DNA from: Candidatus Latescibacterota bacterium
GTDB taxonomy: Bacteria; Latescibacterota; UBA2968; UBA8231
Direction of reading: 5' to 3'
Length of the DNA: 64,000 nt
Assembly: GCA_965248265.1 (NCBI GenBank)
Contig: CBDFJF010000001.1
Location: 2,176,001-2,240,000, forward strand
Below are positions 33,362 through 59,288 of this stretch, in pieces (position 1 is the stretch's first letter; each line of letters starts with the position of its first letter). Both the position numbers and the translations under genes were made by a program. The notes beneath the pieces were generated by a model, which saw nothing but the letters and a program-made list of their open reading frames with translations, had not been told where the DNA came from and searched no databases.

Positions 33362-33368
33362 GTGCGGA

Positions 33369-39352: not shown

Positions 39353-40333
39353 ATGAGCACTGAACCACTGGTGAGCGTGCTGATGCCCACCTACCGGCGA
39401 GCGGCGTACATCGGTGAGGCGGTCGCGAGCATTCTTGGCCAGACCTTCAGCGACTGGGAACTGATCGTCATCGACGACGGCTCAGACGACGGCACCGAGG
39501 CCGTGGTGTGCGGTGTGACCGATCCGCGAGTCCGCCTGCTACGCCAGCAACACCGCGGTATCAGCGCAGCTCTCAACACGGGGCTGGCGGCTGCGCGGGG
39601 ACGTCTGGTGGCCCGGCTTGACTCGGACGACATCTGGCTGCCCGACATGCTCGAAACCCAGGTTGCTGCACTCGATCGGGTGCCAGAGGCCTGTCTGTCC
39701 TATGCCCGGGGCCAGGCCATGAGTACCACTGGCGCACTGCTCCAAGATGTGTGGGGCCTGCCCCTTCACTACCCTGGCGACGCCTTCCGCAGCATGGTGT
39801 TGGGTGACTCGACCTGTAACATCACTGTGGTAGTACGACGGGCCTGCCTGGACCGCGCCGGTTCCTTCGACGAGTCCATGCAGACCGGCGAGGATTGGGA
39901 TATGTGGCTGCGCGTTTCGCGACATGGCCAGTTCGTCTTCACCGACCGGGTGCTGGCGCGCTTCCGCCGGCACGGGGAGCAGATATCGGAAAGACCGACA
40001 CGCGACCGCGACCGCGCGGACCGGGTGCGGGTTCTCGACAAGCTGTTCCGAGACCCGAGCCTGCCGCCCGAAATCGGGGCGCTTCGCGGCCTGGCCTACA
40101 GCAACGTGGCGACCGGCAACGGACTGATGTGGCTGGTGGAAGGTAAATACGGCCTGGCGGCACGCGCTTTCGCACATGCGCTGCGCATTTCGCCCCAGCC
40201 GCTCCTGACAATAAGCCGCATCACCTGGTTCGGCCTGCGCTGGCGAGTGCTCGACCGAAACCGGTGGGGCCGTTGTCTGGCCAGTGGCTTTACACGCCTG
40301 CTACACCGCACACGCCAGCGAGGGGAGAGATGA
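39353..40333 (+). CDS. Glycosyltransferase family 2
   Basis: LVSVLMPTY, IDDGSDDGT, LDSDD, EDWDMWLR. Confidence 0.92.
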   Translation: MSTEPLVSVLMPTYRRAAYIGEAVASILGQTFSDWELIVIDDGSDDGTEAVVCGVTDPRVRLLRQQHRGISAALNTGLAAARGRLVARLDSDDIWLPDMLETQVAALDRVPEACLSYARGQAMSTTGALLQDVWGLPLHYPGDAFRSMVLGDSTCNITVVVRRACLDRAGSFDESMQTGEDWDMWLRVSRHGQFVFTDRVLARFRRHGEQISERPTRDRDRADRVRVLDKLFRDPSLPPEIGALRGLAYSNVATGNGLMWLVEGKYGLAARAFAHALRISPQPLLTISRITWFGLRWRVLDRNRWGRCLASGFTRLLHRTRQRGER

Positions 40334-42852
40334 CGTTCGACATGACGACGCCCCAGGATCCACAGCCTGGCTGGTCGGTCAGCCCTCGCTTGGCCATCGC
40401 CGTCCTGCTCCTGCTGTCGACGGCGGCGCTGGCAGCGCGCGTCATGCCCATCTGGTCCCAGATTTTCCCCGCACCGGGGCACGTCCGCCTTCTGGGTGTG
40501 GACCCGTATTACCACCTTCGGCACGCCCGCTTCGTTGCCGACAACATCCCGCACCTGCAGCGCTGGGACGTCGGCACACACTACCCGGACGGGCAGTGGT
40601 CTGACGCTGCGGGTCTGTTCGATCTCGCGATGGGCTCCGCCGCGTGGTTGATCGGCCTGGGCGACCCCACGAACGACCTCGTCGACCGCGTGGTCGCCTG
40701 GACGCCGCCGCTACTTGCCGCGCTGTCGATCTGGCTGTTGTACCTGCTTGCCCGCACAATGCTCGATCGGCGGACGGCTCTGCTAGCCGCCGCGATCTTT
40801 TTGATCTACCCGGGCTCTTCGTTACATCGGTCTCTACTCGGTTTTGCCGATCACCACGTCGCCGAAATCGTCCTGGCCCTGCTGACCGCCTGGGGGTTGA
40901 TGCGCTGTCTGCAGACTGGCGAATCCTCAAAGCCGGTGCCGCCATGGTGGCGACCGGCGTGCGAGTACGCCTGGCCTTTGGCCATCTTCCTGTTTACGTG
41001 GGTCGGCGCGCCGATATACGTGTTGCTCGTGTTTGTGGTGCTGCTAATCGTCGCCACAGTGGAGATCGCCCACGGCGGAGATTCCAACGCTGCGGCACAC
41101 GGCGGACTGCGCTACGGCAGTGCCCTGCTGCTTATGGTAGGGGTGTCCTCCGTCCTGTGGCCGGACCTGGTGATGTCCCCGAAACGTTTCTCCCCCGCGC
41201 TGCTGGGATGCGCGGCAGTGGCACTCGTACCGGCCGCTTACGTGTTCGCCGCACGCCGGCTCCTGCGCCGGCTGAATCGACCACGCCTCATCGCCTTCTT
41301 CGCGGCGGCTGTCGTCGTCGTTCTCGCTGCCCTCTTCATGGCGCACGCGGACCAGGCCCGCCATCTCGCCGCGCTGCTGCTGACGCCCAAACGCTCGGCA
41401 CTTACCGAGCACCTCGTCATCGACTGGCGCCTTTACGGAAAGCTGCTGGGAGCACCGGGGCTCCTGGCCCTGGCTGCCTTGCCCCTGGGACTGTGGCGGG
41501 CTGTTCGGCGTCCCGGCGACCGCTTCTGCCTGGTACCGCTCCTCTTCGGGGTGCTGCTCATAGGGCTCTGGCTCAGAACGCACGATTATGACTATGCCCC
41601 TCCTGTTTTCGTAGCCCTGATGGCCGCTTTCGTGACGGCGGAGGTGGCCGGCCGCATCCCGGCGCGGCACGTCGCGTGGATGCGCTGGGTGGGTTCCACG
41701 ACGCTCGCGGCGCTCTTGCTGTGCCCGATCTGGCCGTTACGGCTGGTGGCGATGCCCATGGCAACGGCCCGGATGGCCACCAACCACTCAATGACCACGC
41801 AGGCCTGGGAGCAGGCCATGACGTGGATGCGTCAAAACACACCGAAGCCTTCGCTACCGGTCGATACCCGGGTGGAGCCGTTTGGAGCCGGATTCGACTA
41901 CCCGCCTGGCACCTACGGGGTCTTCACTGCCTGGGATTTTGGCAACATCGTGAACACCTTGGGAGAACGGGTACCGGTGTGGAGCCGGTGGCCGTCCGCT
42001 CGCACAGCCATGTGGATTGTGAGCGAGGACGAGGAGGAATCGCTCGGCTTGTTGTGCCCTGGCTGCGAGGAAGGCGAGGAGGTCCGCTATGTCGTTCTGG
42101 AGGCCCGCACCATCGCCCAGCATTTCCTGGGCAAGGTCCTGGCAGCCGGCCGTCAGCTCAGGGACTATGACACTGGGAGAGAGAACTGGCAGTCACTCGA
42201 AGAGGACGAGAAGATCCTGAATCGCACATACGGTCACAAGTACGAGCGGTCGATGGCGGTCCGTCTGTTCCGGGATGACGCCCGCCACCTCGGACACTAC
42301 CGGCTCGTGTACGAGTCTCCCCGCGAGAGCTACATTACGTACCAGCTGAAGTTGGGGACCAACACCCTCAGGCGGCTCGCCTACGATATCAAATCCGACA
42401 GGCAGCGCGAGGTCGTCACCGGTCGCGCCCGAACAGGACAGGTGACCCGCTTCGGAAACCACTATCAGTACGATGGCATCGTGACGCCTTCGGTCAAGAT
42501 CTTCGAGGTCGTACAGGGCGCGCGCCTGACGGGTGAGGCACGCGCCGGAACGGCAGTGGAGGCTCGCCTGGAACTGCGCTGCGGGTCCGGCGGACGCAGG
42601 GTGGATTACGTCAGATCCGTCGTAGCCGGATCAGACGGCCACTTCGACCTCGTGGTCGCGCACTCCTCCGAACCGGTGACAGACAACGCGACCTGCGAGG
42701 CCATCGGACCCTATTCCCTGTTCGTACGCAACACCCTTGAGAGTGAGATGGTGCCGGCAGGAACCGTCGCCATCTCGGTTCGGCAGGTCCGCGATGGTGC
42801 CCACGTCGATTTAGGTAGATTTTTGGAAGAATGGAAGAGACCCCCGAAATAG
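40330..42852 (+). CDS. STT3-family oligosaccharyltransferase, archaeal AglB-like
   Basis: About 13 hydrophobic segments; DPYYHLR, GFADHHVAE, WMRQNTP, YGVFTAWDFGN (WWDYG variant), LGHYRLVYES, VKIFEVVQGA. Confidence 0.85.
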   Translation: MTFDMTTPQDPQPGWSVSPRLAIAVLLLLSTAALAARVMPIWSQIFPAPGHVRLLGVDPYYHLRHARFVADNIPHLQRWDVGTHYPDGQWSDAAGLFDLAMGSAAWLIGLGDPTNDLVDRVVAWTPPLLAALSIWLLYLLARTMLDRRTALLAAAIFLIYPGSSLHRSLLGFADHHVAEIVLALLTAWGLMRCLQTGESSKPVPPWWRPACEYAWPLAIFLFTWVGAPIYVLLVFVVLLIVATVEIAHGGDSNAAAHGGLRYGSALLLMVGVSSVLWPDLVMSPKRFSPALLGCAAVALVPAAYVFAARRLLRRLNRPRLIAFFAAAVVVVLAALFMAHADQARHLAALLLTPKRSALTEHLVIDWRLYGKLLGAPGLLALAALPLGLWRAVRRPGDRFCLVPLLFGVLLIGLWLRTHDYDYAPPVFVALMAAFVTAEVAGRIPARHVAWMRWVGSTTLAALLLCPIWPLRLVAMPMATARMATNHSMTTQAWEQAMTWMRQNTPKPSLPVDTRVEPFGAGFDYPPGTYGVFTAWDFGNIVNTLGERVPVWSRWPSARTAMWIVSEDEEESLGLLCPGCEEGEEVRYVVLEARTIAQHFLGKVLAAGRQLRDYDTGRENWQSLEEDEKILNRTYGHKYERSMAVRLFRDDARHLGHYRLVYESPRESYITYQLKLGTNTLRRLAYDIKSDRQREVVTGRARTGQVTRFGNHYQYDGIVTPSVKIFEVVQGARLTGEARAGTAVEARLELRCGSGGRRVDYVRSVVAGSDGHFDLVVAHSSEPVTDNATCEAIGPYSLFVRNTLESEMVPAGTVAISVRQVRDGAHVDLGRFLEEWKRPPK

Positions 42853-42874: not shown

Positions 42875-44683
42875 ATGCTAACGCATCTCAAGAAATGCGC
42901 CGCGATGGTGCCCCGCGAGATGCGGCTCCAATGGGGGTCGGTGGTCCCGTTGATTTTGCTGACGGCGGCTACCGAGTCTGCTGGCGCAGCGGTCGTCTAT
43001 GCGCTGGTGAAGATTGTCGCGGACCCGTCCCGCGTGGCTGAAATTCCGGTAGCTGCGACCATCGCCGCGTGGCTGCCGTGGCAGGACCGGGCGTCGGTCG
43101 TCGCTGCATTCGCGACCGTGGCTGCGTTGTTCTACGTAACGAAGAACGCGGTCCTGATCTGGGTGGGCACCACGCGTACCAGAATTGAGGTCAAATCGGT
43201 GGCCTTGCTGGCCAGCCGCATGTTCAGAGGGTACCTGATGACACCGTACCCCTTCCACTTCCGTCGCAACTCCGCCGACCTGATCCGCCAGACCAATCAG
43301 TCGGTGAATATGATGTTCAGCGTGCTCTCGTCCAGCGCCACAGTGGCCTCCGAAATGCTCGTCACTCTGGGGTTCGTCGTAGTTCTGATGTTTGCGGCCC
43401 CGGGAAACACGCTCATCGCCGGCGCACTCCTGGCAGGGTTGCTGGCCCTTTTGCTCAAACTCGTACGGCACCGCACGATCCAGCTGGGCACGCGGGGGCA
43501 TCACCTTCGTATGGCCCTCGTGCAGAGCGTCCAGCAAGGACTGGGTGCCATCAAGGAAATCAAAGTACTCGGCCGCGAGCGGCACTTTGACGACGCGCAT
43601 GCGAACGGCCAGGCGGAGCTCTCACATGTACTGGTGTCGAGGGCGCGGCTGGATGCCATGCCGCGCCTGGTAACCGAATCCGCCTTCGCCGTTGGTGCAT
43701 TGATCGTGGTCGTGCTGATGACCTGGAACGGCGGCCCCGCGTCGGACGTCACCCCTCTGTTAGGCTTGTACGGCTATGCCGCGCTGCGGTTGCTGCCGTC
43801 CGCCAACCGCATGCAGTGGTTGCTTAACGAGATCCGCTACCACAGCACTGTCGTGGACCAGTTGTACGCAGACTTCCTGTTCGTCAACCGCCAACCAAAC
43901 GTGGATCGCGATGCTCCCCCGGAGGGCGACCCGGGGTTCAGCGCACTGGTGCTCGATCGGGTTGGCTACGTATACGATGGCACCGAGACGCGGGTTTTGG
44001 ATGATGTCCACCTCACCATCCCGGCCGGCGAGTCAATCGGCGTGGTCGGCCCGACGGGCGCTGGCAAGAGCACCCTCGTCGACGTGATCGTCGGCCTGTT
44101 GAGTCCATCTACCGGACGAATCACTGTCGATGGCGTCGATCTTTCTCGGCGGTTGTCGTGGTGGCAGCGACGAATCGGCTATGTGCCGCAAGAAACCTAT
44201 CTCGTCGATGACAGTCTCCGCCACAACATCGCTCTGGGCATTTCCGATGAAGAGGTAGACGACGACAGTATCCGTGCCGCTGCTCGGATGGCGCAGCTGG
44301 ACGAGTTCGTGGCCTCGCTGCCCGAAGGATTGGGTACCTTCGTCGGGGAGCGCGGCATCAGACTCTCCGGCGGGCAGCGGCAGCGCGTAGGGATTGCCCG
44401 CGCACTCTATCATCAGCCAGATGTGCTGATCTTCGACGAAGCCACCTCGTCGTTGGACAACGCCACGGAGGCCGAGGTCACGAAGGCCATTGAAGCGCTG
44501 TACGGCGTGAAGACGTTGGTGGTGATCGCACATCGTCTGACCACGGTTCAGCGTTGCGACCGGTTGGTGCTTCTCGAAGGCGGACGCGTCGCCGCGAGCG
44601 GCACGTTTGATGAACTCATGCACAGTTGCGCCGCGTTCCGCCGCCTTGCCGTGCCCGACGAGCAGTCTCAACATCCTGCTTGA
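42875..44683 (+). CDS. ABC transporter permease/ATPase, PglK/WlaB-like lipid-linked glycan flippase
   Basis: PYPFHFRRNSADL, GAIKEIK, RLLPSANR, GPTGAGKST, LSGGQRQR, FDEATSSLD. Confidence 0.85.
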   Translation: MLTHLKKCAAMVPREMRLQWGSVVPLILLTAATESAGAAVVYALVKIVADPSRVAEIPVAATIAAWLPWQDRASVVAAFATVAALFYVTKNAVLIWVGTTRTRIEVKSVALLASRMFRGYLMTPYPFHFRRNSADLIRQTNQSVNMMFSVLSSSATVASEMLVTLGFVVVLMFAAPGNTLIAGALLAGLLALLLKLVRHRTIQLGTRGHHLRMALVQSVQQGLGAIKEIKVLGRERHFDDAHANGQAELSHVLVSRARLDAMPRLVTESAFAVGALIVVVLMTWNGGPASDVTPLLGLYGYAALRLLPSANRMQWLLNEIRYHSTVVDQLYADFLFVNRQPNVDRDAPPEGDPGFSALVLDRVGYVYDGTETRVLDDVHLTIPAGESIGVVGPTGAGKSTLVDVIVGLLSPSTGRITVDGVDLSRRLSWWQRRIGYVPQETYLVDDSLRHNIALGISDEEVDDDSIRAAARMAQLDEFVASLPEGLGTFVGERGIRLSGGQRQRVGIARALYHQPDVLIFDEATSSLDNATEAEVTKAIEALYGVKTLVVIAHRLTTVQRCDRLVLLEGGRVAASGTFDELMHSCAAFRRLAVPDEQSQHPA

Positions 44684-44758: not shown

Positions 44759-45658
44759 TTGACACTGCCACTCGAACCCATGCTGCGGAAGCTCAGAGCT
44801 GCCGTCGGTTACGGAGCGCCTCTCTTGCGGGCGCGACGATCCGGAACACGTCGTGTTGGCGTGATGACCTGCACCCTCGACGAAGCGGCGTGCGCGGCCT
44901 TCACCGTAGGGGCGTTCGCCGATCTCGTCGACACCTACGTGCTCATCGACACGGGGTCGACCGATGGGACCCTGCCGTTGATCGAGAACATGTATGCTCA
45001 GCAGATTTCCGATGGCCGGCTGATCGTTGAGCAACTCGGGCGCCTTCCGGACTTCAGCATGGCGCAGGCGCGGGCGCGGGCGCTGGAGATTCTCCGTGCC
45101 CAGGAGATTGACTACTTCCTCAAGATTGACGCCGACGAAGTGTTCTACGACGCCGGCGCACACAGACTCGTGCAGATTGCCCGCCGGCTTCCGTCACCCG
45201 TCACCTACGTATCATGCTCGCTCCGGGAGCTCTACCAGTGGGAGCTGCAAACCACGAGCGATTGGCTACAGGCGCTCGACGAGCAACGCGATGTCTTCTG
45301 GGAGATGTCGTTCGTTCCCCACAAAGATCTTGTCTTCCGCGTGACGGGAGCGTACACTCACGGCCGGTGGACGGACGAAGCCCAGGGCCTCCCCGCAGAG
45401 GGCATCGCCCATCACGGCCCCATGGTTCGAGAGCGGGCAATAGGGGTCCTGGCCGCGCACTACGGCTGGGCGCGCCCCGTCGAGTGCAAGCGCGCCAAGA
45501 GCCTCGCTTGGCATGGCGATCCCGCGGCAGATCCCCGCGTCGATCGCCTCCACCACCTCACCGACGATCGGCGGCGACCCCGCCGTCGGTTTCGCCGCCA
45601 CCCGGAGGTTATTCGCAGAAAGCTGGGTGCGGTGCGGGAATGGCTTCACGCCCGCTGA
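44759..45658 (+). CDS. Glycosyltransferase family 2-like protein
   Basis: IDTGSTDGT, KIDADE, HYGWA; start uncertain. Confidence 0.75.
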   Translation: MTLPLEPMLRKLRAAVGYGAPLLRARRSGTRRVGVMTCTLDEAACAAFTVGAFADLVDTYVLIDTGSTDGTLPLIENMYAQQISDGRLIVEQLGRLPDFSMAQARARALEILRAQEIDYFLKIDADEVFYDAGAHRLVQIARRLPSPVTYVSCSLRELYQWELQTTSDWLQALDEQRDVFWEMSFVPHKDLVFRVTGAYTHGRWTDEAQGLPAEGIAHHGPMVRERAIGVLAAHYGWARPVECKRAKSLAWHGDPAADPRVDRLHHLTDDRRRPRRRFRRHPEVIRRKLGAVREWLHAR

Positions 45659-45674: not shown

Positions 45675-46000
45675 TCAACGCAACAGCGATATCATCTGCT
45701 CCACTGCTTCCGGCTCAAGATCTAATGTTCGGGAAATTTCGCGGCTGGGTGTATCGTGCTCCATATAGTACAGACAGAGAAGCCAATTACGCACTGCAGC
45801 AGGTTGCTTCGAAAACACGGTCCCGGTCAAGTCATCGAACGAGCGCACACAGTTGTGGCAGTAGTAACGGCGCAGATGCGGTAGAGCATCATCCGAGCCA
45901 CTCTGGCTAAACTCGTCGCCGCCACATTCCGGACAGAATATGCCCTTATCCCATCGGACACGGCGAAGCGTTTCAAAACAGCTGGCGTCGTCCGCGAGGT
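45675..46000 (-). mobile_element. IS1595-family transposase N-terminal zinc-ribbon/HTH remnant
   Basis: DDASCFETLRRVRWDKGIFCPECG...RYYCHNC...FDDLTGTVF...WLLCLYYM...SREISRTL; no DDE domain. Confidence 0.7.
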
Positions 46001-46841
46001 CGCCGGTCTCGAGTTTTCCTGAAAATGCGACGCTCGGCGTTGGCAAGACCCTGGCGATTTCTTTTTCAATGCCATTCAATTGCCACGCAGCATCGGAAAA
46101 GGAGCTGCCGAAACTGCCGATCACTTTGCGACATCTCGACAGGCAGTACAGATCAACCACAGCGTCTTAAATCGCTATCGGATCATTCCGATCGTAGGAT
46201 CTCTTCCGGTGTGTGCTTATTCGCTTAGGAAAGGCCTCTCGCAGCCGTTTCTCCTCCGCTGCAGAGTCGGAGGCGACATAAAATACAGTATCGCTATTCG
46301 CTCCTATTTCCTCTTCCATCAAACGAATGAATTCCTCGGTCGGGCTATATCTAATTGGCCACTCCCCATCCGCGCGCCTCAAGTGAACTCCAACCATTTG
46401 ACCAGATTCACCGAACCGAGAATCGATGAGCCGCTGAAGCGGCTGAATCGGCACGAAATCGCCGAAGCGAGAGGTTCCTTCGTGAAATCGTTTGCAGGCG
46501 ATGATATCGGTTTTCTTGCCTCTGACTATGCCCTCGAGATCACAGCCTCGCTCATGTAAATCCTGCATGTTGGCATCTGTCAAATGCAGGTTGAAAAACA
46601 TTCGGAATACTAGGCGAATCAGCCGCAGAACGATTTTACCCGTAAGACTATTTCCGTTAACGTGGTATAGCCTTTTGACACTGGCAGGCAAAATGAAGAG
46701 GTCGTCAAACCTGCAATTCAATTCTGGACTTAGATACCAGACGACGTACAGCTCTTCTTGTGTTGCCTTGCAGAGAGAGATAGCGGAGTCCAAGCTCCGC
46801 ATGCGATTGCTCAAACCGGCCAGAGGTACGATCGCTATCAT
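45675..46841 (-). pseudogene. Fucosyltransferase-like glycosyltransferase interrupted by an in-frame TAA, with an IS1595-like zinc-ribbon at the C-terminus
   Basis: AGLSNRMR, GVHLRRAD, FYVASD, then ...DPIAI*DAVVDLYCLSRC...GSFGSSFS in one frame; TAA at 46167-46169. Confidence 0.75.
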
Positions 46842-47806: not shown

Positions 47807-47833
47807 ATAGGGTGGGCACTGGGAGACAATCAC

Positions 47834-47905
47834 ATGACGTTCTATAGTCAGTCCGGTCAAGATCGGTTTCTTGATTCGAAAATCTTCCACAAACTCTCCG
47901 GACGC
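47834..47905 (+). pseudogene. Truncated 5' remnant of an FkbM-type methyltransferase
   Basis: GGAG RBS then MTFYSQSGQDRFLDSKIF, the typical YSQxGQD FkbM start; similarity lost after ~22 aa. Confidence 0.5.
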
Positions 47906-51035: not shown

Positions 51036-51812
51036 ATGCTAATTAGTCTAAGATCGCTATGTACCAAACATGGTATTGAAAGCTTCGGAGTGCTTCATAT
51101 CGGTGCCCACAAGGCTGAGGAGCGAGACGAGTATAAGAAGTGCGGAGCATCCAAAGTTATTTGGATCGAAGCAGATCCTGATCTCGCGAATCAACTGAAG
51201 GCCAAGATTTGCGAGAGTGAATCAATCTTCGATGAGGAGAGAGTTTTCAACCACGCAATCTTCGATGTGAACGGCAAGACGATGGACTTCAACGTGACCA
51301 ATAATACCGAGGCTTCTTCGCTACTGGACCTGGGTACACACAGGAAATCGTATCCGGAAATAGTGGTTGATAGGACCGTCAGTGTGGTTGTGAGACGAAT
51401 TGATTCGCTCGATAAGGAATACCCGGATTTATTGGACTCTCTAGACTTCCTCAATTTGGACATACAAGGGGCGGAATTTCCAGCCCTGGTCGGATTTGGA
51501 GACTCCATAAAGCAGTTCAAATGGATCTACACCGAAGTAAACAGGAAGAATGTCTATTTAGGAAATGGCATGATCTGGGATATTGACAATCTGCTTTTGC
51601 AATATGGCTTTTTCCGGAAAGATACCGTCTTTACTTATCAGTACTGGGGCGATGCTTTCTATGAAAAGCGAACCGATTTAGCTGATGTTCGCCGTTTCAT
51701 ATACAAGGCGAGGATTCGTTTTCAGTACCTATGGTGGGCTATAGCAGATTTGCCAGTACCAAAACTCATGATCAGGGCCCTGAACAAGACCAAGCGCCTG
51801 ATCGTGAATTGA
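51036..51812 (+). CDS. FkbM family methyltransferase (visibly AT-richer gene)
   Basis: VLHIGAH, WIEADP, SSLL, LNLDIQGAE, IYTEVN, WGDAFY. Confidence 0.88.
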   Translation: MLISLRSLCTKHGIESFGVLHIGAHKAEERDEYKKCGASKVIWIEADPDLANQLKAKICESESIFDEERVFNHAIFDVNGKTMDFNVTNNTEASSLLDLGTHRKSYPEIVVDRTVSVVVRRIDSLDKEYPDLLDSLDFLNLDIQGAEFPALVGFGDSIKQFKWIYTEVNRKNVYLGNGMIWDIDNLLLQYGFFRKDTVFTYQYWGDAFYEKRTDLADVRRFIYKARIRFQYLWWAIADLPVPKLMIRALNKTKRLIVN

Positions 51813-51831: not shown

Positions 51832-52764
51832 ATGCGACTAACCGTTGCGATATGTACTTGGAACCGGGCAAGCTTGCTTGATCGGACTCTGGCACGGATC
51901 GCGCAAGATGAGACGACTGGACTAGAATGGGAAGTACTGGTCGTCAACAACAACTGTACAGATGACACAGATGCTGTGATCGCACGACATCAGCGGCACC
52001 TGCCGGTGCGCCGGATACTGGAGCGCAGGCAGGGCCTCTCCAACGCCCGCAACGCTGCCGCGATGGCGGCGCGCGGAGATCTTATCGTATGGACTGACGA
52101 CGATGTCCTTGTCGGCGACGGCTGGTTGCGTGCGTACGAACGGGCCGCCCGCCTGTACAGTGAGAGTTCCTTCTTCGGGGGACCGATAGTCCCGGAGTTC
52201 GAAGGCGCGGCACCGAAGTGGCTCATGGCTGCTCTGCCACACGTAGGGGGTGTGTACGGTACGCTCGATCTGGGTGTGGAAACTCACGAGCTCACCCCTT
52301 CCGCCCTGCCCTTCGGTGGGAACTTCGCGGTTCGGACTGCAATTCAGCGATCGTACTTGTATGACCCGGATGTTGGCCGCATTGGGAAGGGCATGTTGAG
52401 CGGGGAAGAAACGACGGTCATGCTCCGGATGCTTGGCGACGGGTACAGTGGACAGTGGCTCCCCGACGCCACACTCCAACACTTCGTACCACGAGAGAGA
52501 CAGACCGCAAGACACATTCGGAGATACCACAGCGGCAGCGCGGAGACACAGGAGCGACGTCGGCCTTGCGGCAAGGGACCGTTGATTTTCGGGAGACCCA
52601 GGGGTCGCCTTTGCAGGCTCGTCATCGCAGAGTTGTGGTACCGCATCCGACGGCTGTCCTCACCTCCTGAGGTTTGGATCAAGGACCTGATCAGAGTAGG
52701 CTGCCTGGAGGGGGAGTGGCGTGGTTTGACGCCGCCGAGCGCAAGACCGTGCGCTGGGGCCTGA
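51832..52764 (+). CDS. Glycosyltransferase family 2
   Basis: TVAICTWNRA, VVNNNCTDDT, GLSNARN, WTDDD, SGEET. Confidence 0.9.
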   Translation: MRLTVAICTWNRASLLDRTLARIAQDETTGLEWEVLVVNNNCTDDTDAVIARHQRHLPVRRILERRQGLSNARNAAAMAARGDLIVWTDDDVLVGDGWLRAYERAARLYSESSFFGGPIVPEFEGAAPKWLMAALPHVGGVYGTLDLGVETHELTPSALPFGGNFAVRTAIQRSYLYDPDVGRIGKGMLSGEETTVMLRMLGDGYSGQWLPDATLQHFVPRERQTARHIRRYHSGSAETQERRRPCGKGPLIFGRPRGRLCRLVIAELWYRIRRLSSPPEVWIKDLIRVGCLEGEWRGLTPPSARPCAGA

Positions 52765-52805
52765 TCGTTCGCTTACGCGCAGTGCATGGTCCTGGCCTCA
52801 GAGCG

Positions 52806-54062
52806 ATGTGCGGTGAGAGAATCAAGTCGTTTTTGCGTCATCTTCGCGTAGGGCTGCTAAAGTGCACGAGCCTGGGCAGGCGACTGGTCGATTGGAGGCT
52901 TCAACGCCGGATCCGCTCGGTACCTCTTGAGCGACTGTTGATGGGCCAAGAGGCAGGTATTCCAGCGGCAGTCTACTCGCGATACGTTGACGATCCGATG
53001 CGCCCTTCGACGCCAGTTGCGCATTCGCCCCATGTGAAATTGCTCGAACAGTACGTGGCAGACGGTGCGAATCTGTTCCAGCGGGACGTGTTTCACAAGA
53101 CCGACTACTATCGGTCTGCGTGCAAGACAATTGATATTGCCGGGAACTACTTCGAGGCTCGCTCAGAAGACCAGATAGTTGATGTCGCACGACGCTTTGT
53201 GGCTTGGTTCAGAGGTGTTGCGGGCACGGCAACAGGGACCCAACCAGGACGCTCAGCTCCCGGTTCTCCGGTAATCGTACAACCCGTGCGATTCTCAAAC
53301 TGCTACCAGGTTGTTGACGGCCACCACCGGTTGGCAATCCAGTGCGCACGGGGCGCATCCGAAGCAAGTGTACTCCCGGTACGTTCCGAGGTTTTGACAC
53401 CAATCCAGTCAACCGTTTTGGACGTAGTTTGGACGGCTGGGCGGCGCGAGCTGTATCAACCCATTGACGCCCCTGAGCTTCAAACCTGGCCGTTAGTAAG
53501 GCGTTGCTCAGATCGCCTGGAGAAAATGCGCGAGTTCCTTCGAGATGAGGGAATTCAGGCGAGCTCCGGCAGCAGCTATCTGGATGTCGGATCGAGCTAC
53601 GGCTGGTTCGTCAGCCAAATGCTGAGGCTCGGATTCGACGCCTGCGGGGTGGAGATGGACCCGGTCTCGGCTTCGATTGGTCCGATGGCGTACGGGTTAG
53701 ACCCTGCGAGAGTCCACGTCATGGATAGCATCAGCTTTCTCCGGTCGAATTCAAAGCAGTTCACCGTCACGTCGTGTTTCAGCGTCATTCATGTCTTTGC
53801 GACTGGGAAGAAGTCGATCTCAGCCGAGGAGTTCATTCGACTCGTCGACTTGAGCACTGAGAAAGCTATGTTCATCGACACGGGACAGAACCACGAGACT
53901 TGGTACCGCGAATCACTTGCCCAATGGGACGAGGACTTCATTCATGACTGGCTCTTAAGGAACACTTCCTTCCATCGCATCGAACGCCTGGGCGTTGACC
54001 AAGATGCGGTTCCTCCGTTTGAGGACTCCTACTCGCGAATGCTGTTTGCATGCACCAGATGA
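52806..54062 (+). CDS. ParB/Srx-like domain fused to a class I SAM methyltransferase
   Basis: YQVVDGHHRLA motif, then YLDVGSSYGWF and CFSVIH; start uncertain. Confidence 0.65.
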   Translation: MCGERIKSFLRHLRVGLLKCTSLGRRLVDWRLQRRIRSVPLERLLMGQEAGIPAAVYSRYVDDPMRPSTPVAHSPHVKLLEQYVADGANLFQRDVFHKTDYYRSACKTIDIAGNYFEARSEDQIVDVARRFVAWFRGVAGTATGTQPGRSAPGSPVIVQPVRFSNCYQVVDGHHRLAIQCARGASEASVLPVRSEVLTPIQSTVLDVVWTAGRRELYQPIDAPELQTWPLVRRCSDRLEKMREFLRDEGIQASSGSSYLDVGSSYGWFVSQMLRLGFDACGVEMDPVSASIGPMAYGLDPARVHVMDSISFLRSNSKQFTVTSCFSVIHVFATGKKSISAEEFIRLVDLSTEKAMFIDTGQNHETWYRESLAQWDEDFIHDWLLRNTSFHRIERLGVDQDAVPPFEDSYSRMLFACTR

Positions 54063-54086: not shown

Positions 54087-55058
54087 TCATTGGTGCTCGG
54101 TGGAGACCTTCCTCACTTGCTCCTCGATCCACGGATAGGTCTCGCCGATTCCGTCCCGCACAGTGTACTTCGCCGACCATCCCTGCGACATGATCTTGTC
54201 GACCTTGTGATACCTTGCCTGTACGCCGACCGGCCCTTCGACGTACTTGATGCCGATCTGCTTGCCGGCTACCTCGGCCACGGTATCCACCAGTTCCTGG
54301 ACTGTCGTCAGCTCGGTGCTGCCAATGTTGGTCGGTTCAGTAACATCTGATTGCATCAGTGTGTATATGCCAGTGCACATGTCTGCGACGTAGGTGTATA
54401 CTCGCAGCGCGCTCCCATCTCCCCACACCTCGATCTCGTCGCCATCGCTGGCCATCGCGACCTTCCGACACAGGGCGGCAGGTGCCTTCTCGCGCCCGCC
54501 TCGCCATGTGCCTTCCGGCCCGTAGCAATTCTGGAAACGGGCGATACGGACATCCAAACCTCGGTTTCGCGAAAACGCCAAAGCCACACGTTCTGCGTAC
54601 AGCTTCTCCCAGCCGTACTCATTGTCGGGCAGGGCCGGATACGCATCTTCCTCTGCGATGTACGATTCACCCTGCTGCTGGTCGCGATACACACAGGCTG
54701 ATGAAGAAAGGAAGTAGCGACCAACTCCTGCGTTGCAGGCTTCACTCACCATGTGAAGGTTGGCCAGCCCGCTGTTGATCATGATCTCGCATTCGGCCGA
54801 ATGGATGAAACCCATCCCTCCCATGTCGGCGGCGAGCTGGTAGACTTCGTCAAAATCGTCACGGCCATCAAACGCCACCGCCCGTTCGCAGTTACCGCGA
54901 TCCCGCAGGTCGAGCAGCTGGAAATCATCGGCACTCGACGCGGAGAACTCCGGCTCTTTCAGGTCTACGCCTCTGACCCAGTAGTCTCGAGCTTTCAGGA
55001 ACCGGACGAGATGATGGCCAATGAAGCCACCGGCGCCGCAGACAAGTGCCTTTTTCAT
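54087..55058 (-). CDS. NAD-dependent epimerase, GDP-mannose 3,5-epimerase-like
   Basis: GAGGFIGHH, LAADMGGMGFI, SSSACVY, YGWEK, GREKAPAALCRK, VWGDG. Confidence 0.88.
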   Translation of the reverse strand: MKKALVCGAGGFIGHHLVRFLKARDYWVRGVDLKEPEFSASSADDFQLLDLRDRGNCERAVAFDGRDDFDEVYQLAADMGGMGFIHSAECEIMINSGLANLHMVSEACNAGVGRYFLSSSACVYRDQQQGESYIAEEDAYPALPDNEYGWEKLYAERVALAFSRNRGLDVRIARFQNCYGPEGTWRGGREKAPAALCRKVAMASDGDEIEVWGDGSALRVYTYVADMCTGIYTLMQSDVTEPTNIGSTELTTVQELVDTVAEVAGKQIGIKYVEGPVGVQARYHKVDKIMSQGWSAKYTVRDGIGETYPWIEEQVRKVSTEHQ

Positions 55059-55284
55059 GAGTAAGACCTTTCGTGCGCTACCTCGAAAACGGTGGAGTGT
55101 GACCGGTGCTCTCAAACATGGCGGATTGAAGCGAAATCCCCAAAGCTTCAAGCGTGTCCCCACGTGGCATAGACAGCTCTACGGATTTCAGCATAGATTC
55201 TCTCCTTCCATGCCCGGCGTCCACCGTTGCGCCTTTCCAACACCTTAGTGGTAGCTCCCCATAGGGGTTGACGCTCCGACTCAC

Positions 55285-56757
55285 ATGACCACCTGCATAG
55301 TCGCCTTTCTAATCGCGTTTTTCGTGTCAATTGTCATTACTCGGTCGATTATCCGCGTTGCCGTCCGTCTCGACTTCGTGGATAAACCTGACTACGTACG
55401 AAAGTTTCACCAAAACGCCGTGCCGTGTGTAGGTGGCGTAGGCATCTTCATCGCGTTCTTTGTGCCCGTCGCAGCACTGTTCTTCTTCTACAAGAATTTC
55501 ATCTCCGAGCAGCTACTGCACCTTCCCATAGAACTTCTGGGTCTGACGGCAGGAGCGACCATCGGGTTGGGACTGGGATTTTTTGACGACGTCCGCGGCT
55601 TGCGCATGCGCTGGAAGCTTCTGCTTCAGGCTGTTGCAGCGACTGCGGCCTTCGCCACCGGTTATGCGATCGCTGAGATCAGTATACCGTTTGTTGGTGT
55701 GATTGAAGTAGGGGTCATCAGCTATCCTCTCACTCTGTTTTGGTTCTTGGGCTGTATGAACGCTCTGAATTTTCTTGACGGACTGGACGGGCTGGCAGCC
55801 GGTGTGAGTTTGCTGGTGTCGATTACGCTGTTTTTGGTCAGTCTCATTTTTGAAAACCGGGTCGGCATGGTGCTGTCGATCAGTCTGGCTGGAGCTATCC
55901 TGGGTTTCCTGCTCTACAATTTCCACCCTGCACGCATTTTCCTTGGTGACTCGGGCAGCATGCTCCTCGGATTCCTGATCGGGGCCCTGTCGATTCTGGC
56001 AGGTAGAAGCACCGAGAACACGACGACCGTCTCACTTTTCATTCCCCTTATCGCCCTCGGTTTGCCGATCCTGGATACTTGTCTCGTGATTGCCCGACGC
56101 TGGTTTCGCAGGGTTCCTATCGCCGAGGCTGACCGCCGTCACATCCACTACGCTCTGATCTCGATGGGCCTGAGTCACAAGCGCACGGTCCTCATTCTCT
56201 ACCTGGCCAGTGTTGTATTCGGTGTTTGCGCCCTGTTGATCACATTTGAGCGAGGCGAGGTGGTCATCCTGGTTCTTGGAGCAATGTGTATTATCGGCTT
56301 TGTTTGTGTGCGCGTGTTTGCTGGAGTGACGATGGCTGCTCTTTTCAGCAGAGGGTTTGACGCCGGTGCCAGATCCGCACTGGAGAGGGCGCTGCTGGAA
56401 ATGCACGTTGAAGACACCCCAGAGCGTGTCTGGCGTTGCTGTCACCCAGTGTTGGCAGCGGTCGGGTTAGACCGGGCCGAACTGCATCTGCTTGACGAGG
56501 TCTCAGCACAGATGACGATATTGCGATGGACCCGAACGGATGATGCCGAGCCAAGTGATCCTGTACCCGGCAGTGGCGATCATTGGTCCGCCAATCTCAC
56601 GATCTATTCGCCGACTTCCGACATCAAGGGAGAATTGGTCGTGGCCAAGACGTCGCGACTCGGACATCGGGCAAGCCTGGCTTCAGAAGTCCTCGACACG
56701 TTACGCCTGGCCCTAGGCGCAAACCTGGAACGCCTCAAAACACCCCCTGAGTCATAA
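55285..56757 (+). CDS. wecA: WecA/TagO-type undecaprenyl-phosphate GlcNAc-1-phosphate transferase with a C-terminal soluble extension
   Basis: DKPDYVRKFH, GFFDD, NALNFLDGLDGLA, YNFHPARIFLGDSGS, ADRRHIHY. Confidence 0.88.
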   Translation: MTTCIVAFLIAFFVSIVITRSIIRVAVRLDFVDKPDYVRKFHQNAVPCVGGVGIFIAFFVPVAALFFFYKNFISEQLLHLPIELLGLTAGATIGLGLGFFDDVRGLRMRWKLLLQAVAATAAFATGYAIAEISIPFVGVIEVGVISYPLTLFWFLGCMNALNFLDGLDGLAAGVSLLVSITLFLVSLIFENRVGMVLSISLAGAILGFLLYNFHPARIFLGDSGSMLLGFLIGALSILAGRSTENTTTVSLFIPLIALGLPILDTCLVIARRWFRRVPIAEADRRHIHYALISMGLSHKRTVLILYLASVVFGVCALLITFERGEVVILVLGAMCIIGFVCVRVFAGVTMAALFSRGFDAGARSALERALLEMHVEDTPERVWRCCHPVLAAVGLDRAELHLLDEVSAQMTILRWTRTDDAEPSDPVPGSGDHWSANLTIYSPTSDIKGELVVAKTSRLGHRASLASEVLDTLRLALGANLERLKTPPES

Positions 56758-56787: not shown

Positions 56788-57963
56788 CTATCTCGAGAAA
56801 TCCCTTACGACTGTCCGCAGCTGATCCACGAACCGATCTGCCGAGAACAACTCCTTCCGGCTCAACACATACTCGCTGAGAGAAATTTGTAGTTCTGAAT
56901 CTGAAAGAACCCGGTCGATCCTGTGAACTGCCTGTTGCACATTTCCGTAAAGTAGCCGTTCATCTCCACCGACGATCTCTACGGGCCCCCCCTCGTCTGG
57001 CACGAACACGATGCACCCGGCCCGCTGCAGCTCCGCCACCACAATTCCGAAGTGCTCGCCTGCCATGCCGTGAATTCCATATCTGTTGTTTGCCATCAGG
57101 TCGACGAGTTCGCCGCGCGGCAAATCTATATGAATGTTCACCCAGGTTTGATGGCGTGCAGCCAGTTCAAAAACGGCACGTGTATAGGGTTTACTATCGG
57201 GGGTTCCGACCAGGTGAAAGTTAATATCGTGTCCTCGCTCACGCACCTGAGCGAGGATTTCAATCAGCTTGAGCTGATCCTTTTCTGGGGAAATACGGCC
57301 GACGCAGACGAAGCCATTGTCGCGCTCTATCCAGGGCACTTCGGGGAAGAACCCTGGAACTGGCGGATACAACGTCGTCGAATCAACACAGTACGCCTCG
57401 TGCATCTTGCCGGCGATGTAGTCAGAATTCACCAGCGACAGGTTTTTCCGCATGCCATCAACATCGAACCCACCGATAGCCAACTTGCACGTTGCCCTAT
57501 AGCCTTCCAGCAGTGCAGCGGGGGCGTGATACCAGCGTAGATCCACCTCGGGGCGCGGCAAGTAACCCCACGGGAAGTGAATGTACTGAATACCTCGCTG
57601 TCCGAAATCGACCTCGTTGGCGGTACTGATGACCGCATCGTAGTGGTGGGTCTTCAGGTGCGCTTTTGTGGCTCGGAAGAAGAGGCACATGTGCAGCAAG
57701 CTCAGTGGTGTGGGCGCCACATCCAACAGGGCATGTAGGCCAGTATTGGTGAGGTGTAGTCTGAAATCGGAAGGCTTCAATGACGTGCCGAAGAATCTGT
57801 TGACTGCGTTACAGTCGCATGGCTTCGTGGTCAACAGGGAGACATCGTAGCAACCCCGCAGGGCCTGCAATACCCACGAGGCGACCGCGTTGCTGCCTCC
57901 AGGCGGTTGCAGGGACGGCTGAGTGACAAGCACTTTTTTTCTGGTACGAGTGCTTTCACTCAT
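56788..57963 (-). CDS. GT4 glycosyltransferase, ALG11-like mannosyltransferase
   Basis: PPGGSNAV, YIHFP, VNSDY, LYPP, VGRISPEK, GIHGMAGEHFGIVVAE parallel the ALG11 motifs GGGGERV, YVHYP, VNSSW, VYPP, GQFRPEK, GLHTMWNEHFGIGVVE (recalled). Confidence 0.75.
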   Translation of the reverse strand: MSESTRTRKKVLVTQPSLQPPGGSNAVASWVLQALRGCYDVSLLTTKPCDCNAVNRFFGTSLKPSDFRLHLTNTGLHALLDVAPTPLSLLHMCLFFRATKAHLKTHHYDAVISTANEVDFGQRGIQYIHFPWGYLPRPEVDLRWYHAPAALLEGYRATCKLAIGGFDVDGMRKNLSLVNSDYIAGKMHEAYCVDSTTLYPPVPGFFPEVPWIERDNGFVCVGRISPEKDQLKLIEILAQVRERGHDINFHLVGTPDSKPYTRAVFELAARHQTWVNIHIDLPRGELVDLMANNRYGIHGMAGEHFGIVVAELQRAGCIVFVPDEGGPVEIVGGDERLLYGNVQQAVHRIDRVLSDSELQISLSEYVLSRKELFSADRFVDQLRTVVRDFSR

Positions 57964-57965
57964 TG

Positions 57966-59288
57966 TCAATACCCCAGCAACCCTGCTCGTGCGTGTTTCC
58001 GCCAACTCTCATCCCAGCTTTGTTGCCGGCAACCGGCAACTCCGAGGCGCAACTCGTCCAGTAGCGGGGTGTCGGTTGGGAAGCCACTGAACAACTCGCG
58101 CAACTGCTCTTTCAATTCGGCCGGACCATCGAAAACCAGTCCGTTCACTCGATGTTGGACCTGCTCTGCCAGACACGGTCCGTAGTTCAAGGCGGACACG
58201 GGTAATCCGGCGCCAAACATGTCCATGATTTTCATCGGCAGGTCTACCTTGGACGACGACCGGTGGAGGCATAAGCCCAGATGCACAGCTCCAAGCAAGC
58301 GTTGGTACTCGCGGTACGGCAACCACAGCGTGCGCAGATGGACCCGTGACGGAGGCAGTCGCATGGCCTCACGTTCGAAAGCCATCTGCCCAGGACCCTT
58401 TCCCGTGATTAGAATCACGAAATCGGGCATCGCCTGGTCATATTCTTGTGCTGCTATTTCCAACAGTAACGAGACCTCTTCATCATAGGTCCAACTCGTT
58501 GGACAGACGATCCACACCGGTGGCCGTGGCGTTATCGGCAATTCGAGCTCCTGACGAAGCCGCCCGAGCAACTCGCGGGCCGGCTCTGGTGCGGTTGGCT
58601 CGAATCCCTGCGCGGGTCGATCATAGAGCAGAACAGGATCGGCAAACCCCCACCGCTGGGTCAGTTGAGCTTGCATCGCGGCTGAAACACACAGGTGATG
58701 ATCCGCCCTGCCGCCGCATGTTCGTTCCAACCATTGGTGGAGGAATACCAGCGGGCTTCGCCGTCCCAGCCGGAGGGCGACCATCGAATAACCGTAATTG
58801 TGCCAATCGATGACGTACCTGGCCGAGCGCAGACGCGCGACAACGAATGCTACCAGCAGAGTCGGTATTGATGGTGGATTCTGCACGAACACAGTATCGG
58901 GACTTCTGAGGCCGAACAGCAGGGCCCGCGTAAGTTGGATCGTATCCTGCAGTACTCTTACAACTGAGTGCATGACGAACAGCAGTCGGTTCCTACGCAT
59001 GAAGTCACTGGCCGAGGTCCGACGGAGCGCGTGGACCCTGATCATGGGATGATTCTCAACTGCATCAAACAAGTCGGTTTCCGCATAACCTACGAGGTCG
59101 ACCGCCGCCCCGGCATCGGCCAGAGATCGGGCGTGGTACTGCATTCGCGGGCTGCGGCCCAAGTCGCCCAGAACCACGATCGCCACCCGGTGTGCTGGAA
59201 CGGACTGTAGGTGATCCGGTATCAATTTCTGAGTCGTCAGTATCCCGAGTACCCTCACGCGAACCCCAGGCAGTTCCCGGGGACGCAA
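57966..59288 (-). CDS. ALG1-like chitobiosyl-PP-lipid beta-1,4-mannosyltransferase (GT33)
   Basis: VVLGDLGRSPRMQYHA, QNPPSIP, IDWHNYGYS, TSWTYDE, ITGKGP, LGLCLHRSSSKVDLPMKIMDMFG, NGLVF, WDESW: the ALG1 motifs in order; start uncertain. Confidence 0.9.
   Translation of the reverse strand: MRPRELPGVRVRVLGILTTQKLIPDHLQSVPAHRVAIVVLGDLGRSPRMQYHARSLADAGAAVDLVGYAETDLFDAVENHPMIRVHALRRTSASDFMRRNRLLFVMHSVVRVLQDTIQLTRALLFGLRSPDTVFVQNPPSIPTLLVAFVVARLRSARYVIDWHNYGYSMVALRLGRRSPLVFLHQWLERTCGGRADHHLCVSAAMQAQLTQRWGFADPVLLYDRPAQGFEPTAPEPARELLGRLRQELELPITPRPPVWIVCPTSWTYDEEVSLLLEIAAQEYDQAMPDFVILITGKGPGQMAFEREAMRLPPSRVHLRTLWLPYREYQRLLGAVHLGLCLHRSSSKVDLPMKIMDMFGAGLPVSALNYGPCLAEQVQHRVNGLVFDGPAELKEQLRELFSGFPTDTPLLDELRLGVAGCRQQSWDESWRKHARAGLLGY

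Follow-up and report, generated by a model that had tools for sequence, protein, structure and literature searches.

A candidate oligosaccharyltransferase-dependent glycosylation island with STT3 and ALG1 homologues in a Candidatus Latescibacterota genome

The stretch of DNA analysed here, called the window in the following, comprises 64,000 nt of contig CBDFJF010000001.1 (positions 2,176,001 to 2,240,000) from a Candidatus Latescibacterota genome of 7.32 Mb in 2 contigs (completeness 92%). Within the window, an island of ~20 kb (39353-59288) encodes a homologue of the oligosaccharyltransferase (OST) STT3, an ATP-binding cassette (ABC) exporter, a polyprenyl-phosphate sugar-1-phosphate transferase (GPT), and a relative of the eukaryotic mannosyltransferase ALG1. 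ORF (open reading frame) calling revealed 17 ORFs, all intact and free of internal stops. The genes on which the preliminary description of this locus was built, namely STT3, the ABC exporter, GPT, the ALG1-like gene and its neighbouring family 4 glycosyltransferase (GT4), the GT2s, GT10, and the methyltransferases, were thus all recovered intact and in place. The gene inventory is as follows.

39353..40333, + strand: GT2 glycosyltransferase, first gene of an operon-like GT2-STT3-ABC-GT2 block (Pfam Glycos_transf_2 111.8 bits; NCBIfam matches are generic GT2, all below cut-off)
40330..42852, + strand: STT3/AglB-L-like oligosaccharyltransferase, 840 aa (ATG at 40330 in the database model; the longest ORF starts from GTG 40264)
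42875..44683, + strand: ABC half-transporter with transmembrane and nucleotide-binding domains, candidate flippase for a lipid-linked oligosaccharide (Pfam ABC_tran, ABC_membrane)
44759..45658, + strand: weak GT2-like ORF (Glycos_transf_2 20.5 bits, under the cut-off of 23.3; no NCBIfam match)
45675..46160, - strand: ORF carrying a zinc ribbon of the IS1595 transposase type; it lies at the low-GC block's left edge (Pfam Zn_ribbon_IS1595 31.2 bits)
46167..46841, - strand: ORF of 224 aa, family unassigned (no Pfam or NCBIfam match)
46853..47890, - strand: GT10 alpha-1,3-fucosyltransferase-like (Pfam FucT_N 91.9 bits, Glyco_transf_10 74.9 bits)
48131..49051, - strand: ORF of 306 aa, family unassigned (no Pfam or NCBIfam match)
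49014..49922, - strand: GT2 glycosyltransferase (Pfam Glycos_transf_2 84.2 bits)
49965..50762, - strand: FkbM-family methyltransferase (Pfam Methyltransf_21; TIGR01444 49.2 bits, over cut-off)
51036..51812, + strand: FkbM-family methyltransferase (Pfam Methyltransf_21 50 bits; TIGR01444 54.1 bits)
51832..52764, + strand: GT2 glycosyltransferase (Pfam Glycos_transf_2 72.2 bits)
52674..54062, + strand: ORF of 462 aa, weakly methyltransferase-like (Pfam Methyltransf_23 21 bits, below cut-off)
54087..55163, - strand: NAD-dependent sugar-nucleotide epimerase/dehydratase (Pfam Epimerase 124.4 bits; top NCBIfam match GDP-L-fucose synthase, 90.7 bits against a cut-off of 500)
55285..56757, + strand: GPT, a polyprenyl-phosphate sugar-1-phosphate transferase in the MraY/WecA/ALG7 family, extended by ~150 aa at its C terminus (PF00953 139.4 bits)
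56788..58005, - strand: GT4-family glycosyltransferase, here called GT4b (Pfam Glycos_transf_1 64.5 bits)
57966..59177, - strand: ALG1-like (GT33-type) candidate beta-1,4-mannosyltransferase, 403 aa (the database model starts at 59177; the longest ORF reaches 59288)

The genes are tightly packed at both ends of the island. The stop codon of the first GT2 and the start codon of STT3 overlap as ATGA (40330-40333), the ABC exporter begins 23 nt downstream of STT3, and the ALG1-like and GT4b genes overlap by 40 nt. The low-GC block contains the GT10, two family-unassigned ORFs, two GT2s, and the two FkbM methyltransferases. Promoter and terminator scans retrieved sites no more numerous than in shuffled sequence. 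The stretch was found in 4 sequencing runs, all from one study, with no RNA run among them.

On the basis of its modelled fold and its catalytic residues, the island STT3 is a member of the OST family (GT66), in which it belongs to an atypical subfamily. Pfam recognises the N-terminal domain PF02516 (70.6 bits; cut-off 24.5), AglB_L1 (44.8), and an AglB_core-like domain (27.0). The profile of archaeosortase-A-associated STT3 proteins (TIGR04154) aligns along 1-821 of its 831 positions, with a score of 315.7 bits that does not reach the cut-off of 450. The top match among solved structures is AglB-L of A. fulgidus (PDB 3waj, E 2.1e-25). An AlphaFold2 model built on a 29-sequence alignment (mean pLDDT 89.6, pTM 0.89) retrieved in Foldseek first the same enzyme (AfAglB, 7e9s; TM-scores 0.75/0.73, E 3.4e-34), then yeast and human STT3 (0.5-0.67), and then PglB (0.47-0.56). 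The predicted fold, a multi-pass GT-C domain followed by a C-terminal globular domain, can thus be superposed on solved OSTs. Residues D58, D174, H176, E179, and E360 (840-aa numbering) are invariant in the 29 subfamily sequences, and in AfAglB the stretches GNDPWYYYR and GFNDHHIWE align with these acidic and histidine positions. We take the conserved D, DxH, and E residues, in external loops 1, 2, and 5, to have catalytic and metal-binding roles. Most subfamily members also share the stretch RYVV-[L/I/V]-[D/E]-A-R-T...G-K, which may correspond to the DK motif (DK or MI) that follows WWDYG. The earlier designation as an STT3-type oligosaccharyltransferase is thus borne out by Pfam, the AglB-L structure match, the fold, and the catalytic residues. 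The closest database relatives are 67-68% identical. A second STT3 paralogue in the same genome (C1:1202920-1205391, in our locus set L086:12807-15395) is 50% identical. It is not surrounded by a glycan cluster, with one GT4 ~6 kb upstream as the sole such gene, and thus adds no pathway information. The database relatives fall into two groups that match the two paralogues of this genome, and the duplication therefore looks old.

The second key gene, at 57966-59177, had been described as ALG1-like. Its listed Atlas neighbour clusters include those of eukaryotic proteins annotated as beta-1,4-mannosyltransferase or chitobiosyldiphosphodolichol beta-mannosyltransferase and of Acidobacteriota glycosyltransferases, at cosine values of 0.98-0.99 that serve as a lead and not as an alignment. 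In a word-indexed search, 2062 of the 8000 proteins scored were homologues at E<=1e-3. The closest database relatives are 83-85% identical, and the closest named ones, at ~50% identity, belong to Binatia and 'Deltaproteobacteria' metagenome-assembled genomes (MAGs), many of them labelled beta-1,4-mannosyltransferase by JGI. In a 17-sequence family alignment (A1) the protein keeps 75/75 invariant columns and is 46-54% identical to the more distant members, Binatia relatives included. A hidden Markov model (HMM) made for the family gives it 677 bits, whereas every other glycosyltransferase of the genome receives <=37 bits. A PDB sequence search yielded 0 matches at E<=0.1. In agreement with the earlier designation, the Atlas neighbours, the names of the JGI relatives, and the family HMM indicate that this protein is kin to eukaryotic ALG1 (GT33) rather than a generic GT4, and it is predicted to be a beta-1,4-mannosyltransferase.

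For the remaining core genes, the earlier assignments held only in part. GPT, presented as an N-acetylglucosamine (GlcNAc)-1-phosphate transferase acting on polyprenyl phosphate, belongs to the PNPT superfamily by its PF00953 domain. GlcNAc is a candidate for its sugar; the WecA model, which would denote GlcNAc, scores 116 bits against a cut-off of 326 (archaeal MraY model: 103 against 450). Among PDB entries, MraY (E 3e-16) and human DPAGT1 (E 2e-13) match it about equally well, and GPT is the genome's top match (284 bits) to an HMM of the GPT genes that accompany ALG1 relatives in other genomes. The name 'ALG11-like' for GT4b found no support in the one family test available: ALG11_N (PF15924) has no match at E<=10 (HMMER filters may hide very weak ones), the only Pfam matches being Glycos_transf_1 and Glyco_trans_1_4, and the protein falls in a separate bacterial GT4 subfamily. 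It has EHFGIVVAE as its EX7E motif and the loop PPGGSNAVASW, and it scores 571.9 bits on an HMM of the GT4b type and 27.9 bits on that of the ALG2 type. Its glycine loop may resemble that of ALG11; we do not file GT4b as ALG11. An assignment to ALG2 was likewise rejected on account of this low score and the joint absence of both ALG2 signatures (GIGGAER and EHFGIVPLE). A PDB search with GT4b found only 3c4q, 'predicted glycosyltransferases' (E 0.012). The ABC gene, proposed to be PglK-like, does encode an exporter that adjoins STT3. It is no PglK equivalog, as the NCBIfam models of HepA (266 bits), PglK (261.6; NF050066, cut-off 1000), and MsbA (260.1) score alike and all below cut-off. An HMM made from the ABC genes of ALG1 loci gives 788 bits for the island copy and <=375 bits for the other ABC genes of the genome. 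By architecture and by its clustering with STT3, the gene is a candidate PglK/MsbA-type exporter with a predicted flippase function.

Several other bacterial phyla also have ALG1 and STT3 paired in a compact gene cluster. In a forward scan of one genome per species, the best 80 of 200 loci with ALG1 relatives were kept. According to the record titles, they derive from Binatia, Vicinamibacterales and other Acidobacteriota, Methylomirabilota/Rokubacteria, Bryobacterales, and Myxococcota, and from single Phycisphaeraceae, Verrucomicrobiia, proteobacterial, and cyanobacterial MAGs. Screens with single window proteins (phmmer and tblastn) found STT3 in 8/80 and 24/80 of these loci. They undercounted it because the STT3 of the Binatia type is too divergent, and ORF clustering combined with Pfam then found this type. 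These screens were replaced by counts with family HMMs, which were built from the same 80 loci that they later counted, with a Pfam check of identity on examples only. On this basis an STT3 of any type is present in the examined flanks of 47/80 ALG1 loci and in 21 of the 39 for which both 10-kb flanks are complete. A MurG-like glycosyltransferase of family 28 (GT28), which ORF clustering and Pfam located next to ALG1 and which searches with window proteins had not detected, occurs in 51/80 loci, the ABC exporter in 47/80, and GPT in 28/80. The GT4 neighbours of ALG1 form two subfamilies, an ALG2-type (GIGGAER and an EHFGIVPLE-like motif; 34/80) and GT4b (PPGGGNxVAAW and EHFGxxxAE; 31/80), found together in 17/80. 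The combination of MurG-like GT28, GPT, ALG1, ALG2-type GT4, and STT3 is present in 12/80 loci, and all seven families are present in 6/80. In Rokubacteria, the loci with all seven pack these genes in ~10 kb, and one of the all-seven loci (L073) was confirmed gene by gene with Pfam. Its phosphotransferase ORF (L073:5002-5865) is only 288 aa long and covers profile positions 64-158, which may reflect a frameshift or an assembly error. The divergent STT3 of the Binatia type accompanies ALG1 in 24 loci (L003-L026, from Binatia and 'delta proteobacterium' MAGs; for example L008:4396-7317). It is encoded by an ORF of ~970 aa in which GSDDDVW replaces DHH and WWDYG is mostly kept, and phmmer with the window STT3 misses it.

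The reverse comparison started from 80 metagenome loci that were retrieved in a scan with the STT3 subfamily of the window. An STT3 was assigned to the window subtype if the window-type HMM gave it a higher score than the Rokubacteria-type HMM did (32/80 loci). ALG1 is encoded in 13 of these 32 loci, and in 7/7 of those in which STT3 has flanks of at least 3 kb on either side. Loci of other subtypes have ALG1 in 0/48 cases, and in 0/22 with such flanks. Among the findings that would speak against it, the preliminary description had named a lack of co-occurrence of bacterial GT33 genes with STT3 elsewhere. Co-occurrence was found in both directions. The grouping is not due to chance: both genes are rare in the phylum of the island's host yet are repeatedly co-localised in unrelated phyla. 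The usual layout, seen in a Myxococcales MAG (L047) and in many metagenome loci, has MurG-like GT28, GPT, and ALG1 convergent on STT3; locus L110 adds an ALG2-type GT4 and an ABC exporter to this layout.

Several of the loci show further features. In the Myxococcales MAG (at L047:13897-17895), genes for glycoside hydrolases of families GH8 and GH12 flank the STT3 of the window subtype. In 5 Rokubacteria loci, a protein of ~1789 aa with eight Flg_new_2 repeats and Big_2 domains is encoded ~1.5 kb downstream of STT3 (L044:14938-20304 and four other loci) and is a candidate surface glycoprotein acceptor. Two ALG1 clades, mostly of Acidobacteriota and with complete flanks, have no STT3 in these flanks and have metabolic neighbours such as molybdopterin dehydrogenase subunits and aldehyde dehydrogenase. 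The loci of these clades are L027, L031, L032, L035, L036, L038, L040, L042, L043, L045, L046, L053, and L054, and also L066, L070, L077, L078, and L080-L082.

Taken together, the genes and their recurrent linkage suggest that the island most likely encodes an OST-dependent pathway for en-bloc glycosylation, of the ALG/Agl type and not of the Campylobacter pgl type, which was acquired as an island. We assign this reading a probability of roughly 0.6. Because the same pairing recurs in several phyla, the cluster probably builds and transfers a eukaryote-like glycan. In the proposed pathway, GPT (55285-56757) would first place an N-acetylhexosamine (HexNAc)-1-phosphate on undecaprenyl phosphate. 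The ALG1-family enzyme (57966-59177) would then add a beta-mannose from GDP-mannose, and GT4b (56788-58005) further hexose. Enzymes of the variable low-GC block (GT10, GT2s, the two FkbM methyltransferases, and the epimerase/dehydratase) may decorate the glycan on the cytoplasmic side. The MsbA/PglK-type half-transporter (42875-44683) would flip it, and the AglB-L-like STT3 (40330-42852), perhaps together with the orphan paralogue, would transfer it to a periplasmic or surface protein. We infer each chemical step, the identities of the sugars, and the protein acceptor from what is directly apparent, namely the gene families and their integrity, the conservation of the STT3 catalytic residues, and the recurrent linkage in other genomes. 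Cross-phylum synteny strongly backs the earlier proposal of a lipid-linked oligosaccharide pathway that ends in transfer by STT3. Its more specific parts, a Man-beta-1,4-HexNAc core and transfer to protein, are predicted from the enzyme families.

Weighing against this reading are the acceptor motif of STT3, the distance between the two gene modules, the ALG1 loci devoid of STT3, the missing pathway steps, the inactivity of some tested ALG1 homologues, and the position of the island gene in the ALG1 tree. The WWDYG motif of solved OSTs reads the Ser/Thr at position +2 of the sequon. At this place the island STT3 has AWDFG and the second copy of the genome PWDFG, so that the canonical motif is found in neither. 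The first Trp is absent from 29/29 subfamily members, and the Asp is replaced by Glu or Gly in some. Transfer to an N-X-S/T sequon is therefore not assured. An alternative explanation would be that the pathway is the same up to flipping but that this STT3 subfamily ignores N-X-S/T and uses Asn in another context, another residue, or a non-protein acceptor. In line with this alternative, all 29 members share the motif x-W-[D/E/G]-[F/Y/S/L]-G and invariant acidic residues for metal and carboxamide binding, and the STT3s that accompany ALG1 in Rokubacteria, Vicinamibacteria, and Bryobacterales retain the canonical WWDYG. This contrast between a uniform change here and a canonical motif elsewhere, together with the invariant acidic residues, also implies that the altered motif is a conserved property of the window's STT3 subfamily and not a sign of decay. 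However, neither the second Trp nor the Gly varies, both copies of this genome keep the Asp, and the modelled overall fold and C-terminal domain match AglB-L. Moreover, to our knowledge every characterised STT3, AglB, or PglB enzyme N-glycosylates Asn. We thus regard a changed acceptor as unlikely.

The island might also be an ordinary surface-polysaccharide locus for O-antigen, capsule, or exopolysaccharide, in which GPT, ALG1, GT4b, and the decorating enzymes make a polymer or a lipopolysaccharide glycan and the STT3-ABC operon is incidental. Such loci typically contain GT2s, GT10, FkbM methyltransferases, an epimerase, and a WecA-family initiator. Between the STT3-ABC and GPT-GT4b-ALG1 modules lie ~10-12 kb of DNA (from 44.7 kb to 55.3-56.8 kb), most of it lower in GC, and the two modules are taken to be coupled by analogy with other genomes. 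Likewise, the examined flanks contain no STT3 in 33/80 ALG1 loci, of which 18 have complete flanks; ALG1-like genes are therefore not always linked to STT3. On the other hand, no Wzy, Wzx, Wzz, Wza, or ligase family is among the Pfam matches of the island ORFs, and the exporter is a single half-transporter of the MsbA/PglK type, a family that also accompanies ALG1 and STT3 in other phyla. An incidental association is also hard to reconcile with the strict split in the reverse comparison, where ALG1 is present in every well-flanked locus of this STT3 subtype and in none of the others. A mere polysaccharide locus thus appears quite improbable, and we continue to favour a pathway that ends in OST-dependent transfer.

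Such a pathway would have gaps in this organism. The island contains no GT28 (MurG-like) gene by Pfam analysis of its ORFs, and no ALG2-type gene by HMM score. The preliminary description had correctly noted that neither ALG13/14 nor ALG2 is visible in the window, and the search was extended to the whole genome with the same outcome. Alg14 (PF08660) has 0 matches in the genome, of which 92% is represented, and an ALG2-type gene is absent genome-wide, with a best HMM score outside the island of 86.5 bits against >=200 for family members. The sole GT28 gene of the genome encodes a MurG-HEAT fusion (C2:3185171-3188470, L168:9171-12470), which is conserved at full length with 51-56% identity in 9/9 family relatives that do not have the island, and which we thus read as the housekeeping MurG. 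This gene has C-terminal HEAT repeats, is followed by a MraY-family gene, and adjoins a BatA/BatD-type operon rather than a classical dcw cluster. In the absence of a dedicated transferase for the second GlcNAc, the chitobiose acceptor of the tested ALG1 homologues is unaccounted for; an island GT2 and the housekeeping MurG are candidates for this step. In addition, a recent preprint reports two of five tested bacterial ALG1 homologues, one deltaproteobacterial and one from Methylomirabilota, as inactive (bioRxiv 10.1101/2025.10.15.682550). In its fullest form, the cluster comprises a MurG-like GT28 (the ALG13/14 equivalent), GPT, ALG1, an ALG2-type GT4, GT4b, the ABC exporter, and STT3. The fuller clusters, in Methylomirabilota/Rokubacteria and Vicinamibacteria, add to the gene set of the island the MurG-like GT28 and a GT4 that carries the two ALG2 signatures published. 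The island is thus a reduced member of a wider bacterial cluster type. Reduction could also mean that it is a decaying remnant, which lost its MurG-like and ALG2-type genes, received an insertion of foreign DNA, and has ceased to make a transferable glycan. The island indeed lacks two core genes of the fuller clusters, and an insertion sequence (IS)-type ORF and a low-GC insert are present. However, all 17 ORFs are intact and some overlap as in translationally coupled operons, the ALG1-like protein has lost none of the invariant columns of its family, the catalytic residues of STT3 are kept, and a second paralogue is maintained. Decay is thus highly improbable.

Phylum-wide rarity, a mosaic GC content, and the IS1595-type ORF support horizontal acquisition of the island, which is compositionally mosaic. 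Among 168 genomes of the phylum, the ALG1-like gene occurs in this genome only, and it is found in 0/40 relatives. PF02516 matches occur in 6/168 genomes, several of them weak, and the island STT3 is present in 0/40 relatives. The GC content is 0.66 at 40-42 kb, drops from 0.62 to 0.52 near 46 kb, is 0.52-0.53 at 46-52 kb, and amounts to ~0.60 around the island. The PBP5-like gene in the left flank is conserved in 15/15 of the family relatives that were searched. For the amidase in the right flank, only two relatives have a whole orthologue (72% identity), and one fragment lies at a contig end. In those two the orthologue is far from the PBP5 gene. No empty site could be compared, and a delimitation of the island by flank synteny was abandoned. 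In a quick maximum-likelihood tree of 94 ALG1 sequences, the clades track the STT3 type of the locus (19 label changes, where shuffling gives a mean of 50). The window ALG1 is placed weakly, on a long branch, with the loci of the Binatia type (81-83 in the Shimodaira-Hasegawa-like approximate likelihood ratio test, SH-aLRT) and outside the main clade of its own STT3 type. We loosely conclude from this placement that the island may be a mosaic, with parts drawn from several sources.

A more far-reaching possibility concerns the cluster type as a whole. An operon-sized, transferable cluster with equivalents of ALG7, ALG13/14, ALG1, and ALG2, a further GT4, a flippase, and STT3 may natively build a lipid-linked glycan of the Man(n)GlcNAc2 type and N-glycosylate proteins in Methylomirabilota/Rokubacteria, Acidobacteriota, Binatia, and Myxococcota and, by transfer, in the phylum of this genome. 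We advance this idea tentatively and at somewhat less than even odds. Within it, the cluster could have moved between domains as one module, in either direction.

Two other loci of the window deserve mention. Just upstream of the island, at 30545-35365, a second glycosylation module encodes a TMEM260-like GT-C protein of 938 aa (PF11028, 174.7 bits), a GT2 (33276-34418), and a flippase-like LPG_synthase_TM protein (34415-35365; TIGR00374, 83 bits). This module could be a system of the protein O-mannosylation type. Farther upstream, an ORF of 1913 aa (24055-29796) combines several ABC ATPase domains with a doubled set of UvrA interaction and DNA-binding domains, and by this domain content it looks like a tandem-fused double UvrA.

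Bacterial OST-dependent N-glycosylation is usually described as limited to Campylobacterota and Desulfobacterota, with glycans of the bacillosamine type, and the introduction of an eLife 2022 article states that bacterial systems of this kind seem confined to 'Delta- and Epsilon-Proteobacteria' (PMC8993221). In Lombard 2016 (PMC4973528), the origin of ALG1 is left unplaced, with a eukaryotic innovation as one possibility, and the few bacterial STT3 sequences are nested among euryarchaeal ones. According to the preprint by Xu et al. 2025 (bioRxiv 10.1101/2025.10.15.682550), bacteria have 204 ALG1 homologues, a bacterial origin of ALG1 is proposed from isolated enzymes, and reliable ALG1 homologues are absent from archaea. 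Yeast alg1 is complemented by the homologues of Gammaproteobacteria, Polyangia, and Binatia, which make Man-GlcNAc2-PP-phytanyl, and bacterial ALG2 homologues, for which the signatures GIGGAER and EHFGIVPLE are given, made Man3GlcNAc2. The text of the preprint contains 0 occurrences of STT3, PglB, 'gene cluster', 'operon', and 'neighbo'. Our literature search, with subscription journals and the preprint tables EV1-EV4 outside its reach, retrieved no paper that links bacterial ALG1/ALG2 homologues to STT3 clusters. The clustering of ALG1 and ALG2 relatives with STT3, GT28, GPT, and a flippase in several phyla provides a physiological context for those enzymes. It makes the origin of the eukaryotic pathway testable by joint phylogeny and biochemistry, and offers glycoengineering a native bacterial way to core glycans of the eukaryotic type. 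The STT3 subfamily with its conserved non-WWDYG motif, in turn, is a natural experiment in acceptor recognition.

Compared with known systems, the island shares with the eukaryotic ALG pathway, in matching order, a PNPT-family initiator, an ALG1-family enzyme, a GT4 with an EHFG-type EX7E motif, flipping, and an STT3-family transferase. The fuller bacterial clusters also share the GT28 that corresponds to ALG13/14 and a GT4 with GIGGAER and EHFGIVPLE. In contrast to the eukaryotic pathway, the OST of the island is single-subunit and nearest to archaeal AglB-L, the flippase is of the ABC type, the carrier is presumably undecaprenol, and no lumenal GT-C mannosyl- or glucosyltransferases were seen; the island also lacks equivalents of ALG13/14 and ALG2 and the WWDYG motif. 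Archaeal Agl systems with AglB-L (PDB 3waj/7e9s) are similar in that AfAglB is the best match in sequence and fold and the AglB_L1 peripheral domain is present. They differ by the bacterial host, by the TIGR04154 cut-off that is not reached, and by the degenerate WWDYG. The crenarchaeal chitobiose-core pathway (AglH, Agl24) has a parallel in the related clusters, which contain a MurG-like fused GT28 as is described for Agl24 in PMC8993221. With the pgl system of Campylobacter jejuni and the PglB of Desulfovibrio, the island has in common a bacterial OST-dependent en-bloc pathway, a PglK-like ABC flippase, and a single-subunit STT3 homologue. It is nevertheless unlike the Campylobacter system, as had been anticipated: no pgl-type family, and specifically no PglC-type initiator or bacillosamine-synthesis family, is among the Pfam matches of the island ORFs, and the only pgl-type NCBIfam matches are weak GT2 ones to PglI (<=58 bits against a cut-off of 500). 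Further differences are the ALG1-family enzyme of the island, the poorer structural match of PglB compared with AglB or eukaryotic STT3, and a host outside the 'Delta- and Epsilon-Proteobacteria'. The bacterial ALG1 homologues of Xu et al. belong to the same family as the island protein; activity on a GlcNAc2-PP-lipid is reported for 3/5 of those tested. Their source lineages (Binatia, Polyangia, Gammaproteobacteria, Deltaproteobacteria, and Methylomirabilota) were also recovered here. The difference is that the enzymes are treated singly in the preprint, whereas the present analysis adds their linkage to STT3, GT28, GPT, and the ABC exporter.

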